The notes under the pieces are model-generated. The model had not been told where the DNA came from. It saw nothing but the letters and a program-made list of their open reading frames with translations, and ran no database searches. From Escherichia coli (GTDB lineage Bacteria; Pseudomonadota; Gammaproteobacteria; Enterobacterales; Enterobacteriaceae): 64,000 nt of DNA. Of the stretch, positions 13,212 through 58,067 are shown in pieces. The position numbers and the translations under genes are program-made. The stretch lies in assembly GCF_045037415.1 (NCBI RefSeq), contig NZ_CP173438.1; one strand, written 5' to 3'. Numbering within the stretch: position 1 is the stretch's first letter; the number at the start of each line of letters is the position of its first letter.

Positions 13212-13278
13212 GAGAGAGAAAACCCCCGCACGTTGCAGGTATGCACCTGACAACATCACGGGGGCCATTCTTGCATCT
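13212..13278 (-). ncRNA. rdlD: Rdl-type antisense RNA (type I antitoxin), copy 1, approximate bounds
   Basis: Minus-strand segment overlapping the ldr leader about 55-120 nt upstream of the ldr ATG, ending in a GC stem plus U-run (plus-strand GAGAGAGAAAACCCCCG); resembles rdlD as I recall it. Ends not determinable from sequence alone. Confidence 0.4.
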
Positions 13279-13330
13279 AGACCATTCAAGAATAGCCGCG
13301 AAACGTTGTCATTACAACACAGGCGGCTAT

Positions 13331-13438
13331 ATGACGCTCGCAGAGCTGGGCATGGCCTTCTGGCATGATTTAGCGGCTCCGGTCATTGCTGGCATTCTTG
13401 CCAGTATGATCGTGAACTGGCTGAACAAGCGGAAGTAA
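13331..13438 (+). CDS. ldrD: Ldr-family type I toxin peptide (35 aa), copy 1
   Basis: MTLAELGMAFWHDLAAPVIAGILASMIVNWLNKRK, the last 35 codons of ORF-track entry 13163..13438; LdrD-like small hydrophobic peptide. Confidence 0.85.
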   Translation: MTLAELGMAFWHDLAAPVIAGILASMIVNWLNKRK

Positions 13439-13488
13439 CGTGTCATGCGGGCGTCAGGCTGCCGTAATGGCAATTTGCGCCCGGACCA

Positions 13489-13522
13489 GGCCGCAGAGGT
13501 GAAACTCTGCGGCCTTTTTCGT
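13489..13522 (+). terminator. Rho-independent terminator after ldr copy 1
   Basis: GGCCGCAGAG-GTGAAA-CTCTGCGGCC hairpin followed by TTTTT. Confidence 0.6.
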
Positions 13523-13694
13523 AAGAAAAATGCAACGGTTGCAAGCGGATAATATTCTGCGGAATGCGCAGCACAGAGTGAAGAAGTGATAGATTCCGGA
13601 ACAGAAAAACAGTCGTAGAATCAGCGTCAAGCCGGAAGGGTTCCGGTGAGGCGCAATGTTGCGGGGGCTTAATCCCTGGTGGCATTGGTTGCTG

Positions 13695-13761
13695 GAGAGA
13701 GAAAACCCCCGCACGTTGCAGGTATGCACCTGACAACATCACGGGGGCTAATCTTGAACCT
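13695..13761 (-). ncRNA. rdlD: Rdl-type antisense RNA, copy 2, approximate bounds
   Basis: Same position within repeat unit 2 (+483 bp from copy 1). Confidence 0.4.
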
Positions 13762-13813
13762 GAACAACTCAAGAATAGCCGCGAAACGTTGTCATTACAA
13801 CACAGGCGGCTAT

Positions 13814-13921
13814 ATGACGCTCGCAGAGCTGGGCATGGCCTTCTGGCATGATTTAGCGGCTCCGGTCATTGCTGGCATTCTTGCCAGTATGATCGTGAGC
13901 TGGCTGAACAAGCGGAAGTAA
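13814..13921 (+). CDS. ldrD: Ldr-family type I toxin peptide (35 aa), copy 2 (N29S variant)
   Basis: MTLAELGMAFWHDLAAPVIAGILASMIVSWLNKRK, the last 35 codons of ORF 13679..13921. Confidence 0.85.
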   Translation: MTLAELGMAFWHDLAAPVIAGILASMIVSWLNKRK

Positions 13922-13971
13922 CGTGTCATGCGGGCGTCAGGCTGCCGTAATGGCAATTTGCGCCCGGACCA

Positions 13972-14005
13972 GGCCGCAGAGGTGAAACTCTGCGGCCTTT
14001 TTCGT
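13972..14005 (+). terminator. Rho-independent terminator after ldr copy 2
   Basis: Same hairpin plus T-run as after copy 1. Confidence 0.6.
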
Positions 14006-14177
14006 AAGAAAAATGCAACGGTTGCAAGCGGATAATATTCTGCGGAATGCGCAGCACAGAGTGAAGAAGTGACGGATTCCGGAGCAGAAAAACAGTCGTA
14101 GAATCAGCGGCAAGCCGGAAAGGTTCCGGTGAGGCGCAATGTTGCGGGGGCTTTATCCCTGGTGGCATTGGTTGCTG

Positions 14178-14244
14178 GAGAGAGAAAACCCCCGTACGTT
14201 GCAGGTATGCACCTGACAACATCACGGGGGCTAATCTTGAACCT
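14178..14244 (-). ncRNA. rdlD: Rdl-type antisense RNA, copy 3, approximate bounds
   Basis: Same position within repeat unit 3; one substitution in the GC stem relative to copies 1 and 2 (CCCCCGTACG versus CCCCCGCACG). Confidence 0.35.
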
Positions 14245-14296
14245 TAACAACTCAAGAATAGCCGCGAAACGTTGTCATTACAACACAGGCGGCTAT

Positions 14297-46681: not shown

Positions 46682-46701
46682 TTAGGATTTTGTTATTTAA
46701 A
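46682..46701 (+). promoter_or_regulatory. GAD box (GadE-dependent activation site) upstream of gadA
   Basis: Exact 20-bp TTAGGATTTTGTTATTTAAA about 80 bp upstream of the gadA ATG, matching the described GAD box of gadA/gadBC promoters. Confidence 0.6.
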
Positions 46702-46780
46702 TTAAGCCTGTAATGCCTTGCTTCCATTGCGGATAAATCCTACTTTTTTATTGCCTTCAAATAAATTTAAGGAGTTCGAA

Positions 46781-48181
46781 ATGGACCAGAAGCTGTTAAC
46801 GGATTTCCGCTCAGAACTACTCGATTCACGTTTTGGTGCAAAGGCCATTTCTACTATCGCGGAGTCAAAACGATTTCCGCTGCACGAAATGCGCGATGAT
46901 GTTGCATTTCAGATTATCAATGATGAATTATATCTTGATGGCAACGCTCGTCAGAACCTGGCCACTTTCTGCCAGACCTGGGACGACGAAAACGTCCATA
47001 AATTGATGGATTTGTCGATCAATAAAAACTGGATCGACAAAGAAGAATATCCGCAATCTGCAGCAATCGACCTGCGTTGCGTAAACATGGTTGCCGATCT
47101 GTGGCATGCGCCTGCACCGAAAAATGGTCAGGCCGTTGGCACCAACACCATTGGCTCTTCCGAGGCCTGTATGCTCGGCGGGATGGCGATGAAATGGCGT
47201 TGGCGCAAGCGTATGGAAGCCGCAGGCAAACCCACGGATAAACCAAACCTGGTGTGCGGTCCGGTACAAATCTGCTGGCATAAATTCGCCCGCTACTGGG
47301 ATGTGGAGTTGCGTGAGATCCCTATGCGCCCCGGTCAGTTGTTTATGGACCCGAAACGCATGATTGAAGCCTGCGACGAAAACACCATCGGCGTGGTGCC
47401 GACTTTCGGCGTGACCTACACCGGTAACTATGAGTTCCCGCAGCCGCTGCACGATGCGCTGGATAAATTCCAGGCCGACACCGGTATCGACATCGACATG
47501 CACATCGACGCCGCCAGCGGTGGCTTCCTGGCACCGTTCGTCGCCCCGGATATCGTCTGGGACTTCCGCCTGCCGCGTGTGAAATCGATCAGTGCTTCAG
47601 GCCATAAATTCGGTCTGGCTCCGCTGGGCTGCGGCTGGGTTATCTGGCGTGATGAAGAAGCGCTGCCGCAGGAACTGGTGTTCAACGTTGACTACCTCGG
47701 CGGTCAGATTGGTACTTTCGCCATCAACTTCTCCCGCCCGGCGGGTCAGGTGATTGCACAGTACTATGAATTCCTGCGCCTCGGTCGTGAAGGCTATACC
47801 AAAGTACAGAACGCTTCCTACCAGGTTGCCGCTTATCTGGCGGATGAAATCGCCAAACTGGGGCCGTATGAGTTCATCTGTACCGGTCGCCCGGACGAAG
47901 GCATCCCGGCGGTTTGCTTCAAACTGAAAGATGGTGAAGATCCAGGATACACCCTGTACGACCTCTCTGAACGTCTGCGTCTGCGCGGCTGGCAGGTTCC
48001 GGCCTTCACTCTCGGCGGTGAAGCCACCGACATCGTGGTGATGCGCATTATGTGTCGTCGCGGCTTCGAAATGGACTTTGCTGAACTGTTGCTGGAAGAC
48101 TACAAAGCCTCCCTGAAATATCTCAGCGACCACCCGAAACTGCAGGGTATTGCCCAGCAGAACAGCTTTAAACACACCTGA
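46781..48181 (+). CDS. gadA: Glutamate decarboxylase alpha
   Basis: ORF 46718..48181 trimmed to ATG at 46781 ([40 protein letters not shown]...), 466 aa, preceded by AAGGAG. Called gadA rather than gadB from the gadX/gadW context. Confidence 0.95.
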
Positions 48182-49373: not shown

Positions 49374-49389
49374 AGTTTTACTCAGACAT

Positions 49390-49495
49390 AAAAAAAACCC
49401 GGCATAGGGGACCGGGAAGAGGATAGTCTGCCGTCTCCAGACTAATAAACCGTTATAACACTCCCTGTTGGCACGGGAAACTTTGTGCTCTCAGT
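49390..49495 (-). ncRNA. gadY: GadY small RNA (antisense to gadX 3' UTR)
   Basis: Minus-strand sequence ACTGAGAGCACAAAGTTTCCCGTGCCAACAGGGAGTGTTATAACGGTTTATTAGTCTGGAGACGGCAGACTATCCTCTTCCCGGTCCCCTATGCCGGGTTTTTTTT matches GadY as I recall it, ending in a GC hairpin plus U-run. Confidence 0.8.
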
Positions 49496-49741
49496 AAGTT
49501 AAATATAACTTTTACTGGAAATAAGATCAGCCATTTTTTTATAAACATAAGCTATACGCTGTGTGAAAATATAATCGTGTTGCATTTACTTATTATCAAT
49601 TAACTGTTATGCAAAACTACTTTGTGGATAAAATTTGGTCCTACCAAATATGGCAGTTTTTGCACACAGAAACAGTCTGGCGTCATTTCATTAGTATACT
49701 GACATTGAAATAATCGCAGTAATGAAATATAAGGGATAGTC

Positions 49742-53970: not shown

Positions 53971-55128
53971 TTATTGTTTCGATTCGGTGCTGGCGTTTTC
54001 CTGGCTGGAGGAAATTGCTCGTGCTTTGATACCCGGACGAATGCGTTGCAAGCCGGAAACGATCACCCGATCGCCAGCCTGCAAGCCAGAGGTGACAACC
54101 CACTGGTCGCCGATGGCTTTGCTGGCTTCGATTTCGCGTAGCTGCACGACATCGTCTTTATCCAGAATGAGTGCCGTTGCTTTACCCTGGGCGTTGTGGG
54201 TGACGCCTTCCTGCGGCACCAGTAATACATTCTGGCGGCTACCTTCATCCACTAATGCCGTAACATACATGCCAGGCAGCAAGTCACCATTTGGGTTGGG
54301 GAAAATCGCCCGTAACGTCACGGAGCCCGTGGTTTCATCCACCGTCGGGTCGGAGAATTTCAGCGTGCCGGTCTGGCCGTAACGTTTACCATTTTCCAGA
54401 TTGAGCTGTACTGGCGTACTGCCCTGAACCTGTTTGATTTGCCCACTGGCGACCTCTTCTTTCATGCGCAAGAAATCCTGCACCGACTGCGTGAGATCGA
54501 CATAAATCGGGTCCAGACGTTGTACGGTAACCAGCGAATCTGCCTGATTAGCGGTAACGAGTGCGCCGACGGTCACCGACGATTTCCCGCTGACGCCCGT
54601 AATCGGCGAGGTGACATTCGCGTATTGCAGATTGATCGTCGCCTGTTCAACAGCCGCTTTGGCGACGGTGACATTGGCTTCTGCTTCATTCAACTGGGTG
54701 CGCGCGGTGTCGTAATCCTGACGGCTAACATAGTTGGTCTTCAGCAACGATGCCTGGCGGTTAAAGGTGATGCGGGCATTGCTGGCGGTAGAGAGCGCTT
54801 TCGCCAGCGAGCCTTTGGCGGAGTTCAGCTCTGCCTGTAAAGGCGCAGGATCAATCTGATACAGCGAATCGCCCTGGTTCACTTTATCGCCTTCGATAAA
54901 GTTGCGTTTAATGATAATTCCGCCCACCTGGGGACGTATCTCGGCAACTTCATAAGGAACGGTTCTACCGGGCAATTCGCTCAACACATTGACCGAACCG
55001 GGGGAGAGTGTGACGACACCGACCTCAGGCGTCATGGCGGCGGCGTTTTCCGCCGATTTGTCATCGCAGGCGGTGAGCATCGCGCCGCAGAATAACAACG
55101 GTATTAACAGTTTTCTTCTTCTGTTCAT
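53971..55128 (-). CDS. mdtE: RND efflux membrane fusion protein MdtE
   Basis: 385 aa with lipoprotein signal (MNRRRKLLIPLLFCGAMLTAC), AcrA-like. Confidence 0.95.
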   Translation of the reverse strand: MNRRRKLLIPLLFCGAMLTACDDKSAENAAAMTPEVGVVTLSPGSVNVLSELPGRTVPYEVAEIRPQVGGIIIKRNFIEGDKVNQGDSLYQIDPAPLQAELNSAKGSLAKALSTASNARITFNRQASLLKTNYVSRQDYDTARTQLNEAEANVTVAKAAVEQATINLQYANVTSPITGVSGKSSVTVGALVTANQADSLVTVQRLDPIYVDLTQSVQDFLRMKEEVASGQIKQVQGSTPVQLNLENGKRYGQTGTLKFSDPTVDETTGSVTLRAIFPNPNGDLLPGMYVTALVDEGSRQNVLLVPQEGVTHNAQGKATALILDKDDVVQLREIEASKAIGDQWVVTSGLQAGDRVIVSGLQRIRPGIKARAISSSQENASTESKQ

Positions 55129-55466
55129 TTTAGTCCCTGAAAATTCTTGAGAAATAACGGTTCTTTAAATTGCGCGCGAGGAGAGATATGAGGGATTTAC
55201 AGACCAGCGGCATAGTGGGGTTGTCAGCCAGTAAGATGGGATGCAAGCACAGTGATCGACATGGTGAGGTCAACGACAAAAAAAATGTTGCCGTTCTGCC
55301 AACAGTTTCTGCCAGCATTCGGGCAACGAAGGGTTCTACTGGTGGATACACATACCAGGGGAATAAAGTCGTTTTCGTCTCTCCTTCAATAATCACCGGG
55401 GGTATTGAAATCAGCATCTGCATCCCTCGTCATGCCAGCCATCAATTTCAGTTGCTTATGTCCTTA

Positions 55467-55994
55467 CTAAAAATAAGATGTGATACCCAGGGTGACGATG
55501 TCGCTCATACGTCTTAATTTCAGCTTGTACATAATGTTGAATTTCTGAATCTTTAATGTTTGTTGCGAAATGTTGAGCGTTGACGTGATATTGCTTTCAT
55601 TTTTGTTTTTCAGAATCAGTTGCATAATTTTGAACTGATTATGTGAAAAACATAGTTGTGAATTCTTATGGGGCAAGTGTTTACCATAAGTAATCTCAAG
55701 AAGATTTTTGATACTTTCTTTACGGCTGACAAAATAAATAGGCGCTTTAGCTTTTAGTTTACTGATGTGATAAGGTGCCAAAACAATAATTCTCTCGGCA
55801 TCTAATTTCTCCAGGAATTTAATCGCTTCTTCATCAAGGATATGGTTGTGATAGGTGTCAATGATCACCTTGAAGGGTTTATTGCCTACTTTTTTGATCT
55901 CTGACAGGGAATTGATTTTTATCATTTCGTGATTATCTTTCAACTGCCAAAAGCCCTGTAAAAGAAAAGAATCTTTCGTCATGAGAAAAATCAT
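55467..55994 (-). CDS. gadE: LuxR-family acid resistance master regulator GadE
   Basis: ORF 55467..56072 trimmed to ATG at 55994 (MIFLMTKDSFLLQGFWQLKDNHEMIKINSLSEIKK...), 175 aa. Confidence 0.9.
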   Translation of the reverse strand: MIFLMTKDSFLLQGFWQLKDNHEMIKINSLSEIKKVGNKPFKVIIDTYHNHILDEEAIKFLEKLDAERIIVLAPYHISKLKAKAPIYFVSRKESIKNLLEITYGKHLPHKNSQLCFSHNQFKIMQLILKNKNESNITSTLNISQQTLKIQKFNIMYKLKLRRMSDIVTLGITSYF

Positions 55995-56792
55995 AACTTG
56001 CTCCTTAGCCGTTATCGTTTCGAACATGTCATCCTTTTCATTATTTACATCCTTGTCCGAATCGTTGTTCAATATAGTAAACGCCTATAAGAACTTTGCC
56101 CTTCGTGAACTAATACGTCTATTAACACTAATCAATACTTCAGATTTATCCATCACGCACTCCATATATTGGTCCTAAGTAAGATTCCTGGTTGTTATCA
56201 GTTTGTAACTAGTAAACAAAAGGTTAACTTTTGCGGATTACTGCCCAAGAATAAGTTATCAATAACCAGTTTGTGATCTCTGAAGAATATTACTAAAGTT
56301 AAAATGTAATCCGATTTAAATATCGAGTCTCCTTGTTTCGACTTAGGCTGGCAATTGGATTGCCAGCTTTCTTTTAACGCATTGAAATTACCTGATTAAA
56401 TAACTCATTCATGTCTTCAGGTTTTTATATAGCGTCTGGAGACACGGATATTTATGCAATGTAATCAACGCCAGTTGCAAAAAAATGAACCCGGATTACT
56501 TATTTAACCGCCCATAGCATCAACGCTTACGGAACTCTTTGTTCACTTTCCCACAGCACTTTTAAAACATTAAACCTGACCACGGAAAATATCAGCCATG
56601 ATAATGTTTGAAATGGCTAATTTGCCATGGAACGAAAAAAATCAGATTAAATTCAGTAGGTTGAAATAATCAACAGCAGGCAATTGTTTCAATGATAGTG
56701 CGTAATTGAACTGAAACACTGTATAGCTAAGAGAGTATTAACTGGATCATAGTCACTTAATGTGACTATGATCCAGGTGGAAATAGGGATAA

Positions 56793-57365
56793 TTATTGCT
56801 TTTTAACGAACAAACTGGCGAAGCTGAACAGACTGGCGGCGCTAAATATCAGTTCAATTCCCACCAGTGTGGAAACCAGCGTTACCGACACCATCGGCGT
56901 AGCACCAAGGAATATCCAGGCAATGACGATATCCAGCACACCAATAACGAGCTGTAGCCAACTGCCTTTCATTGAACGCTGACGATACCAACTCATCAGG
57001 CGAATAACCCCTGCCACACAGAACAAACCGGCAATAAATGCCGCAATGGCAAAAATGCCCAGCTCTGGTGCGCGGATGAAGAAATAGCCGATCAATAAAT
57101 AGGCGACTGCGACGAGGAAACCGGATAATACCGGCCAGAAATTATGACTGCGGTTGCTGAATAGCCCGACAATAAGCGCAATGCCCGAGCAGATTAATAA
57201 TGCACCCACTACTGTGCTTAAAATGTCGCCAGAGACGAACGGAAAACTGATACACAGCAACCCGACGATAAACAGCAGCACGGCAATAAACTGGATTGCT
57301 CTGCGATGTTTTTTAAGCATCTCCAGATCAAACTTCAAAATTGTTGCCTTATCTATATATAACAT
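56793..57365 (-). CDS. hdeD: Acid resistance membrane protein HdeD
   Basis: 190 aa multi-TM (MLYIDKATILKFDLEMLKKHRRAIQFIAVLLFIVGL...). Confidence 0.9.
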   Translation of the reverse strand: MLYIDKATILKFDLEMLKKHRRAIQFIAVLLFIVGLLCISFPFVSGDILSTVVGALLICSGIALIVGLFSNRSHNFWPVLSGFLVAVAYLLIGYFFIRAPELGIFAIAAFIAGLFCVAGVIRLMSWYRQRSMKGSWLQLVIGVLDIVIAWIFLGATPMVSVTLVSTLVGIELIFSAASLFSFASLFVKKQ

Positions 57366-57619
57366 AGAACCACCCTATAAAATTAAGAAGAAAATCCCCT
57401 GCTATCAATCTATGCCAAAAACGCGTCTAAGAATGCAGTCGATTTAATAAAAATTTCCTAATTACAGTATCTGATGCATCTGTAACTCATTGTATTGAAA
57501 TAAAAATATCTGATTTTGATATTTTCCATCAACATGACATATACAGAAAACCAGGTTATAACCTCAGTGTCGAAATTGATTCGTGACGGCTCTTTCACTT
57601 TATAGTTGAGGATATTACG

Positions 57620-57952
57620 ATGAAAAAAGTATTAGGCGTTATTCTTGGTGGTCTGCTTCTTCTGCCAGTAGTGAGCAATGCAGCGGATGCACAAAAAGCA
57701 GCTGATAACAAAAAACCGGTCAACTCCTGGACCTGTGAAGATTTCCTGGCTGTGGACGAATCCTTCCAGCCAACTGCAGTTGGTTTTGCTGAAGCACTGA
57801 ACAACAAAGATAAACCAGAAGATGCGGTTTTAGATGTTCAGGGTATTGCAACCGTAACCCCAGCTATCGTTCAGGCTTGTACTCAGGATAAAAAAGCCAG
57901 CTTTAAAGATAAAGTTAAAGGCGAATGGGACAAAATTAAGAAAGATATGTAA
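57620..57952 (+). CDS. hdeA: Periplasmic acid stress chaperone HdeA
   Basis: 110 aa with signal peptide (MKKVLGVILGGLLLLPVVSNAADAQKAADNKKPVNSWTCEDFLAV...). Confidence 0.95.
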   Translation: MKKVLGVILGGLLLLPVVSNAADAQKAADNKKPVNSWTCEDFLAVDESFQPTAVGFAEALNNKDKPEDAVLDVQGIATVTPAIVQACTQDKKASFKDKVKGEWDKIKKDM

Positions 57953-58067
57953 TTCCGGGAATGCGTTACATCGTATTTCCTTGCATATTGAACAGGCCGG
58001 AATATCTTCTTTAAAAGCAGCTATTCCTCCTGTTTGTATATAATCTCTATATTGAATGGGTTACAAA

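Follow-up and report, generated by a model that had tools for sequence, protein, structure and literature searches.

The closest described counterpart of the locus analysed here is the region between hdeD and gadE in Escherichia coli K-12. PMC3708157, which summarises the work of Ma et al. 2004 and Sayed & Foster 2009, presents it as a 798-bp "sensory integration" region with multiple promoters and four reported transcript starts. In K-12, gadE is established as the master switch of glutamate-dependent resistance to acid, with which E. coli survives stomach acid, and its control region as the point of convergence of the signals acting on it. Control of gadE has been attributed to EvgA, YdeO, GadE, GadX, GadW, H-NS, ArcA, RpoS and CRP, among others (PMC3708157; PMC4222967). 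In particular, H-NS repression and autoactivation of the P1 promoter by GadE have been documented in K-12 (PMC3708157), YdeO has been reported to bind the p2 and p3 promoters of gadE through ATTTCA hexamers (PMC4222967), and ChIP-exo sites are available for GadE, GadW and GadX (PMC4918353). The K-12 region also encodes ArrS (b4704; Aiso et al. 2011, 2014), an antisense small RNA. Published accounts of ArrS describe it as dependent on RpoS (sigma-S) and GadE, with expression at low pH or during stationary phase, and as bound by Hfq, and tie it both to RNase III-dependent processing of gadE mRNA and to Hfq-dependent action in trans, for instance on cfa.

The window analysed here is a 64,000-nucleotide stretch of E. 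coli DNA (assembly GCF_045037415.1, contig NZ_CP173438.1). An earlier note, made from its sequence alone, had proposed that a stretch of about 800 bp upstream of gadE, unusually long and devoid of any credible ORF, is this known multi-promoter integration region, for which ArrS is reported in the K-12 gadE leader. The proposal is borne out. Exactly 798 bp separate the start codon of gadE from the stop codon of hdeD, both genes being encoded on the minus strand, and the limits of this spacer coincide with those given in the note.

55995..56792, minus strand: whole hdeD-gadE intergenic region, that is, the gadE-mdtEF regulatory region, 35.5% GC
55467..55994, minus strand: gadE, 175 codons, MIFLMTKD... 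(ORF map and RefSeq annotation)
56793..57365, minus strand: hdeD (ORF map and RefSeq annotation)
53971..55128, minus strand: mdtE (ORF map)

Beyond hdeD lie hdeA, hdeB and yhiD on the plus strand, and the resulting gene order, mdtE-gadE-(798 bp)-hdeD-hdeA-hdeB-yhiD, is that of K-12. The MG1655 spacer is equal in length (hdeD end at 3657567, gadE start at 3658366), and the alignment of the two upstream regions with the mapped K-12 starts, as suggested in the note, is gapless, with 40 substitutions (95.0% identity), only 12 of which fall in the 634 bp nearest to gadE (98.1% identity). Synteny and gapless alignment thus directly identify the spacer as the orthologue of the K-12 region. The window spacer is 100% identical to that of B2-phylogroup strains such as NC101. 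Over the 50 kb around it, assessed in the identical NC101 sequence, it ranks first in length among about 38 intergenic gaps, the second measuring 519 bp. The region was found in 5413 of 5426 complete E. coli genomes (99.8%), with a median of one copy, a maximum of two and no occurrence on plasmids. Its GC content of 35.5%, against 50.9% over the entire window, is in keeping with an H-NS target; repression by H-NS has been shown in K-12 only. Overall, we consider it almost certain that this spacer represents the B2-phylogroup allele of the non-coding, AT-rich region regulating gadE-mdtEF in E. coli, and no sequence evidence contradicts this explanation.

Since the alignment is gapless, a base at -n from the gadE ATG is found at 55994 + n in the window, and the published K-12 elements can be placed directly. 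ChIP-exo coordinates, given in U00096.2 numbering, were converted and the conversion was checked against the authors' distance-to-TSS columns.

56560, minus strand: T3 start (P3), -566, K-12 position from PMC3708157
56318 and 56311, minus strand: T2 starts (P2), -324 and -317, K-12 positions from PMC3708157
56118, minus strand: T1 start (P1), -124, K-12 position from PMC3708157
56015, minus strand: 5' end "T", -21, K-12 position from PMC3708157
56540..56648, unstranded: GadX/GadW site cluster over P3, K-12 ChIP-exo peaks at -654..-546 (Seo et al. 2015, supplementary tables 2-3)
56156..56190, unstranded: GadE site (P1 autoactivation), K-12 ChIP-exo peak at -196..-162, centred 55 bp upstream of T1
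56173..56178, minus strand: GAD-box core TTAGGA, within the mapped GadE site
56609..56614, minus strand: YdeO-box hexamer ATTTCA, invariant in eight lineages
56662..56667 and 56383..56388: further ATTTCA copies

All the published starts and ChIP-exo sites map to segments identical or nearly identical to K-12. The 55 nt flanking T3 differ by one base (at -587), as do the surroundings of the T2 starts (at -352), and the 45 nt upstream of T1 are identical. The GadX/GadW peaks straddle P3, and the single match to the GadX/W motif, with three mismatches (56580..56599, minus strand), lies within the ChIP-exo cluster. The most proximal 5' end, "T", was already doubtful in K-12, where the P fragment was inactive and digestion of longer transcripts was suggested (PMC3708157); the end at 56015 is probably a processing product. 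A consensus promoter scan returned four matches against 3.3 expected and no sigma-70-like hexamers at P1-P3. Because the scan finds nothing there, placement of these promoters depends on the K-12 mapping; its outcome is compatible with activator- or sigma-S-dependent promoters. By extension from the K-12 literature, promoter activity and regulator binding would be expected in this strain as well.

The search for GAD-box motifs, also suggested in the earlier note, turned out differently: the full 20-nt GAD box TTAGGATTTTGTTATTTAAA has no match in the region at three or fewer mismatches, and the sole match in the window is an exact copy upstream of gadA (46682..46701, plus strand). Of the GAD box, the mapped GadE site retains just the TTAGGA core. 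Immediately next to this core, a SNP at 56172 gives TTAGGAC in the window versus TTAGGAT in K-12 (GAD-box position 7, T to C), a position that is polymorphic among Escherichia species. The 15-nt GadE ChIP-exo motif yielded 29 matches in the window against 25 expected and is hence uninformative, and the three ATTTCA copies, against 0.95 expected (P ~0.06), are weak alone and only suggestive. By themselves, matches to the GAD box, the GadE motif and the YdeO box are about as frequent as expected by chance.

The MG1655-annotated ArrS gene, whose presence in the K-12 gadE leader the earlier note had mentioned, has a full-length match in the window that differs by one base, and both its intrinsic terminator and a candidate promoter element can be placed.

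56306..56375, plus strand: arrS, antisense small RNA gene (MG1655 b4704, 3657985..3658054, minus strand), mapped by gapless alignment, 69/70 identical
56345..56375, plus strand: ArrS intrinsic terminator, with an 11-bp stem (56345..56369), a 3-nt loop and a TTTCTTTT tail
56294..56299, plus strand: candidate ArrS -10 hexamer TAAAGT with C at -13, read from the sequence, at -12..-7 of the annotated 5' end

The 70-nt gene occupies -312..-381 and its transcript has a predicted fold of -19.9 kcal/mol (z = -3.4). The terminator, observed directly, is the only terminator-like site found in 55900..56900, and the single arrS SNP (56346, G for A) falls in its stem, where it converts an A-U into a G-U pair. 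The TAAAGT hexamer is canonically spaced from the +1 at 56306; it may constitute a sigma-S-type -10 element for ArrS, which would fit the reported sigma-S dependence. ArrS is complementary to the leader of the T3 transcript and lies wholly inside it, and the T2 starts overlap the arrS 5' end, head to head, by 6-13 nt, so that the overlap with T2 transcripts is at most 13 nt. This arrangement matches the literature, in which ArrS is complementary to the longest gadE transcript only. Expression and mechanism of ArrS in this strain are presumed to follow those reported for K-12. Since Rfam release 15 gave no match to ArrS, the RNA is not identifiable by that route and its membership derives from the RefSeq annotation. 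An Rfam search of 55000..58000 at a permissive threshold likewise identified no family inside the region. Its sole match, to ES205 (106.5 bits; 55278..55349, minus strand), lies in the gadE-mdtE spacer and represents GadF, a small RNA that the MG1655 annotation places downstream of gadE. In B2 strains, RefSeq additionally carries a "hypothetical protein" (WP_001205317.1, approximately 55188..55517, plus strand) antisense to the gadE 3' end and GadF, which is probably a spurious call.

The elements transferred from K-12 can be compared with an independent footprint of sequence conservation. Six further loci were obtained from species representatives (genome_contigs, one genome per species) using a degenerate pattern of the first ten gadE codons. 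They belong to E. albertii, E. whittamii, two Escherichia species and two records named E. coli, and hdeD lies upstream of gadE in all six, across a spacer that measures 720-798 bp. A Flavobacterium locus returned by the same scan was put aside as a presumed chance match. The resulting eight-lineage alignment, comprising the window, K-12, E. albertii, E. whittamii and four others, reveals seven spacer blocks in which 73-90% of columns are invariant, versus 55% of gadE third codon positions.

56551..56626: GadX/W sites, P3 and T3 start, 65/76 columns invariant
56299..56378: ArrS and T2 starts, 67/80 columns invariant
56244..56284: pair of short blocks between T2 and the GadE site
56160..56201: GadE site, 34/42 columns invariant
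56063..56144: P1 and T1 start, 75/83 columns invariant
55995..56058: leader and Shine-Dalgarno sequence, 56/64 columns invariant

With the exception of the pair of short blocks, the conserved blocks coincide with known elements. The stretch from P3 to ArrS (approximately -540..-385) is variable, and is partly deleted in other species. Purifying selection has therefore maintained the architecture of the region throughout the genus, and the footprint, observed element by element, lends independent support to the mapped features.

Taken together, these data are consistent with several separately controlled promoters arranged in series ahead of gadE. P3 (56560), under the GadX/GadW site cluster and a YdeO-type hexamer, would produce transcripts with a 566-nt leader. 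P2 (56318/56311) would operate head to head with the ArrS promoter, and P1 (56118) would be activated by GadE bound about 55 bp upstream (56156..56190), establishing positive feedback. ArrS would pair perfectly with the T3 leader only and, as reported, raise GadE output via RNase III-dependent processing, in addition to acting in trans with Hfq on targets such as cfa. The final 124 nt of the leader would supply the ribosome-binding site and GGA motifs fitting repression by CsrA. H-NS would silence the whole AT-rich region until overcome by its activators, namely the EvgA to YdeO cascade, GadX/W, ArcA and RpoS-dependent transcription. The GAD-box SNP and the five SNPs in the first GadX/W peak could make the quantitative behaviour of this allele differ from that of K-12.

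A salient feature of the comparison with K-12 is the uneven distribution of the substitutions, which concentrate in the 164 bp adjacent to hdeD. This segment also harbours a hairpin.

56629..56792, unstranded: fast-evolving distal spacer, -798..-635, with two haplotype classes in E. coli
56742..56776, minus strand: perfect hairpin, 17 nt after the hdeD stop codon, with 13-bp arms (15 bp in this allele) and a 5-nt loop

In this segment 28 of 164 sites (17.1%) differ from K-12, accounting for 28 of all 40 spacer differences, versus 25 of 441 four-fold degenerate sites (5.7%) in five surrounding genes (P = 2e-7). The spike in divergence is sharp and is bounded by the hdeD stop codon and the GadX/W block. 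Among 5412 genomes, identity of the distal segment to the window is at least 99% in 1279, 95-99% in 23 and 80-90% in 4110, and no genome falls between 90 and 95%. This defines two haplotype classes, 1302 window-like genomes versus 4110, without intermediates. The same segment is also the fastest-evolving part of the spacer between other lineages. The excess divergence could stem from recombination import, from a mutation hot spot or from selection. Outgroup segments show only 50-56% identity here, and neither a donor nor an ancestral state could be assigned from them.

The hairpin has a folding energy of -25.7 kcal/mol (z = -7.8). Across the eight Escherichia lineages 93.8% of its cells are paired and three pairs have changed on both sides, a covariation exceeding that of all 500 shuffles and of all slid controls. 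The arms are maintained as the loop and flanks vary, with compensatory changes across species from GGATC/GATCC to GCCTC/GAGGC. The hairpin lacks a U-tract on either strand and does not appear in the terminator scan output. Because the U-tract is absent, we infer no more than that it may mark or protect the 3' end of hdeD mRNA; a literature search on an hdeD terminator or 3' UTR retrieved nothing relevant.

These observations raise the possibility that the 164 bp constitute a separate module outside gadE control, namely an hdeD 3' UTR in which the hairpin sets or protects the 3' end, surrounded by a recombined or fast-evolving spacer. The threefold contrast with nearby four-fold sites, the sharp bounds of the spike, the two discrete haplotype classes and the compensatory maintenance of the hairpin arms all point in this direction, and the K-12 ChIP-exo tables list no binding sites upstream of -654. 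According to published promoter fusions, however, all 798 bp belong to the functional region, and the fragments containing P3 include the segment (PMC3708157). Furthermore, a YdeO-type hexamer lies inside it (56662..56667), the hairpin has no U-tract after it that would establish termination, a closer donor allele was not found in the six other lineages, and the covariation derives from eight sequences with essentially one event per pair. On balance we regard a separate module as a tentative alternative, appreciably less probable than not. It is unlikely, in turn, that the segment is a distinct and undescribed module in which the hairpin acts as an hdeD 3'-UTR RNA element or as a gate on GadE-activated read-through from hdeD into gadE P3, and in which the haplotypes set different acid-resistance feedback in B2 and in other E. 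coli. Within the integrated control region that we favour, the distal spacer and its conserved hairpin are the sole part that might repay follow-up.

At the opposite end of the spacer, the 124 nt that immediately precede gadE hardly vary, and the leader contains the ribosome-binding site together with two small reading features.

55995..56058, minus strand: proximal gadE leader, with Shine-Dalgarno AAGGAG at 56001..56006 and GGA motifs at 56002, 56032 and 56050
56012..56041, minus strand: uORF MKRMTCSKR*, 9 codons, with an AAGGA Shine-Dalgarno sequence 8 nt upstream
56025..56027, minus strand: in-frame ATG at -33, which would add MFETITAKEQV to GadE

The AAGGAG sequence lies 6 nt from the gadE ATG, and the three GGA motifs are invariant in the eight lineages. 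One of them, ACAAGGAUGU, is near the SELEX consensus for CsrA, and all three would fit CsrA binding. CsrA has been found to bind the gadE leader in vitro with a KD of 138 nM (PMC11210196). A predicted long-range pairing in the T1 leader that would sequester the Shine-Dalgarno sequence is not supported by statistics or covariation (z = -0.85, 0 compensatory pairs).

The conserved leader might also hold translated regulatory elements, in the form of the 9-codon uORF, the in-frame AUG at -33, or both. The uORF is intact in 8/8 Escherichia lineages and the -33 ATG is present in 7/8, including the window, K-12 having ATA instead. Among 5411 E. coli genomes, 3883 share an identical 61-nt leader segment around this ATG, conservation of the leader exceeds that of gadE third codon positions, and a comparable leader peptide, EvgL, is found upstream of evgA in the same regulatory circuit. 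Nevertheless, all of the 4-5 substitutions in the uORF alter the amino acid, and there is therefore no constraint at the peptide level. The -33 AUG lies 3-4 nt from a Shine-Dalgarno-like sequence, whereas the annotated start is preceded by AAGGAG with a 6-nt spacer, and a ribosome-profiling study of acid stress that reported 18 new small-ORF candidates placed none of them at this locus. CsrA sites and the Shine-Dalgarno sequence explain the conservation equally well, and the leader shows neither covariation nor significant structure, as the values for the predicted pairing indicate. Translated elements in the leader are thus quite improbable, and its small ORFs are low-probability leads as regulators. 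Further upstream, a 26-codon ORF (56085..56165, minus strand) runs across P1 and is intact in 8/8 lineages; counted from an internal ATG that follows GGAG, it has 22 codons. Its conservation is inseparable from that of the P1 promoter.

The absence of genes from the spacer, which the earlier note had asserted while naming a coding gene or mobile element detected by homology as the finding that would speak against it, is likewise directly observed. Few ORFs reach 20 aa. The longest encode 65, 35 and 30 aa on the plus strand, with a maximum of 26 aa on the minus strand, and the 65-aa ORF, antisense to the gadE start, is frameshifted in four Escherichia lineages, including E. albertii and E. whittamii. 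A Pfam scan of the intergenic ORFs returned nothing above cut-off (13.6 bits versus 27 and 14.7 versus 21.3), RefSeq annotates no CDS within the spacer in NC101 or MG1655, and no ORF in the 798 bp has Pfam support or cross-species conservation. Two short plus-strand ORFs with sub-threshold Pfam matches, one of them to a transposase family, and IS1 and Tn3 sequences at this locus in two other strains could be taken to suggest a concealed protein-coding gene or mobile element, but both matches fall under cut-off (E = 0.04-0.06), the longest ORF is disrupted in four lineages, RefSeq lists no CDS, the region is single-copy and chromosomal, absent from plasmids and present in 99.8% of complete E. 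coli genomes, and the window contains no IS1 and is unbroken across the target site at 56453..56461, which leaves this reading practically no chance and refutes it for the window sequence.

The two strains concerned carry disrupted alleles. In strain NR1430, an IS1 insertion with a 9-bp target duplication occupies the site corresponding to window positions 56453..56461, between P3 and ArrS, where conservation of the T3 leader is lowest. In strain 3059, the segment from gadA through gadE up to -232 is deleted beside a Tn3 transposase remnant. Both alleles show that the locus tolerates disruption.

The region is hence already known and has been experimentally dissected, and the window copy is an ordinary allele of it. 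The present analysis contributes a base-accurate transfer of the K-12 map to an allele of the B2 (extraintestinal pathogenic) type and a footprint of conservation across the genus in which the known elements stand out independently. It also adds a set of allele differences that could tune the circuit, comprising the GAD-box SNP, the SNPs in the first GadX/W site, the -33 ATG and the diverged distal spacer; these differences leave the classification unchanged.

Neighbouring regulators are also present in the window, namely gadX, gadW and the small RNA GadY, the latter matched at 49385..49498 (minus strand) between the two genes. The gadA ORF (46718..48181, plus strand) is intact in the window, whereas the otherwise identical NC101 record annotates gadA as frameshifted. 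Elsewhere in the window, three tandem matches to the rdlD antitoxin RNA (13217..14248, minus strand) outline an ldr/rdl type I toxin-antitoxin cluster.

Compared with known systems, the locus is closest to the K-12 hdeD-gadE region, with which it shares flanking genes, the 798-bp length and a gapless alignment. The two differ by the 40 SNPs described above, of which 28 lie in the hdeD-adjacent 164 bp; the GAD box has one and the first GadX/W peak five, and one window SNP restores the in-frame ATG at -33 that is missing in K-12. The window copy of ArrS likewise resembles K-12 ArrS in position, strand, length, terminator hairpin and -10 region, and differs from it by one stem base that changes A-U to G-U. 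A further parallel is provided by the gadX-gadW intergenic region with GadY, on the same island. It is also an AT-rich spacer of the acid fitness island bound by GadX and GadW, and in it an overlapping small RNA, GadY, stabilises the mRNA of a regulator. The two spacers differ in length, 368 bp for gadX-gadW versus 798 bp for hdeD-gadE, and in the placement of the small RNA, GadY overlapping the 3' end of gadX and ArrS the 5' leader of gadE.
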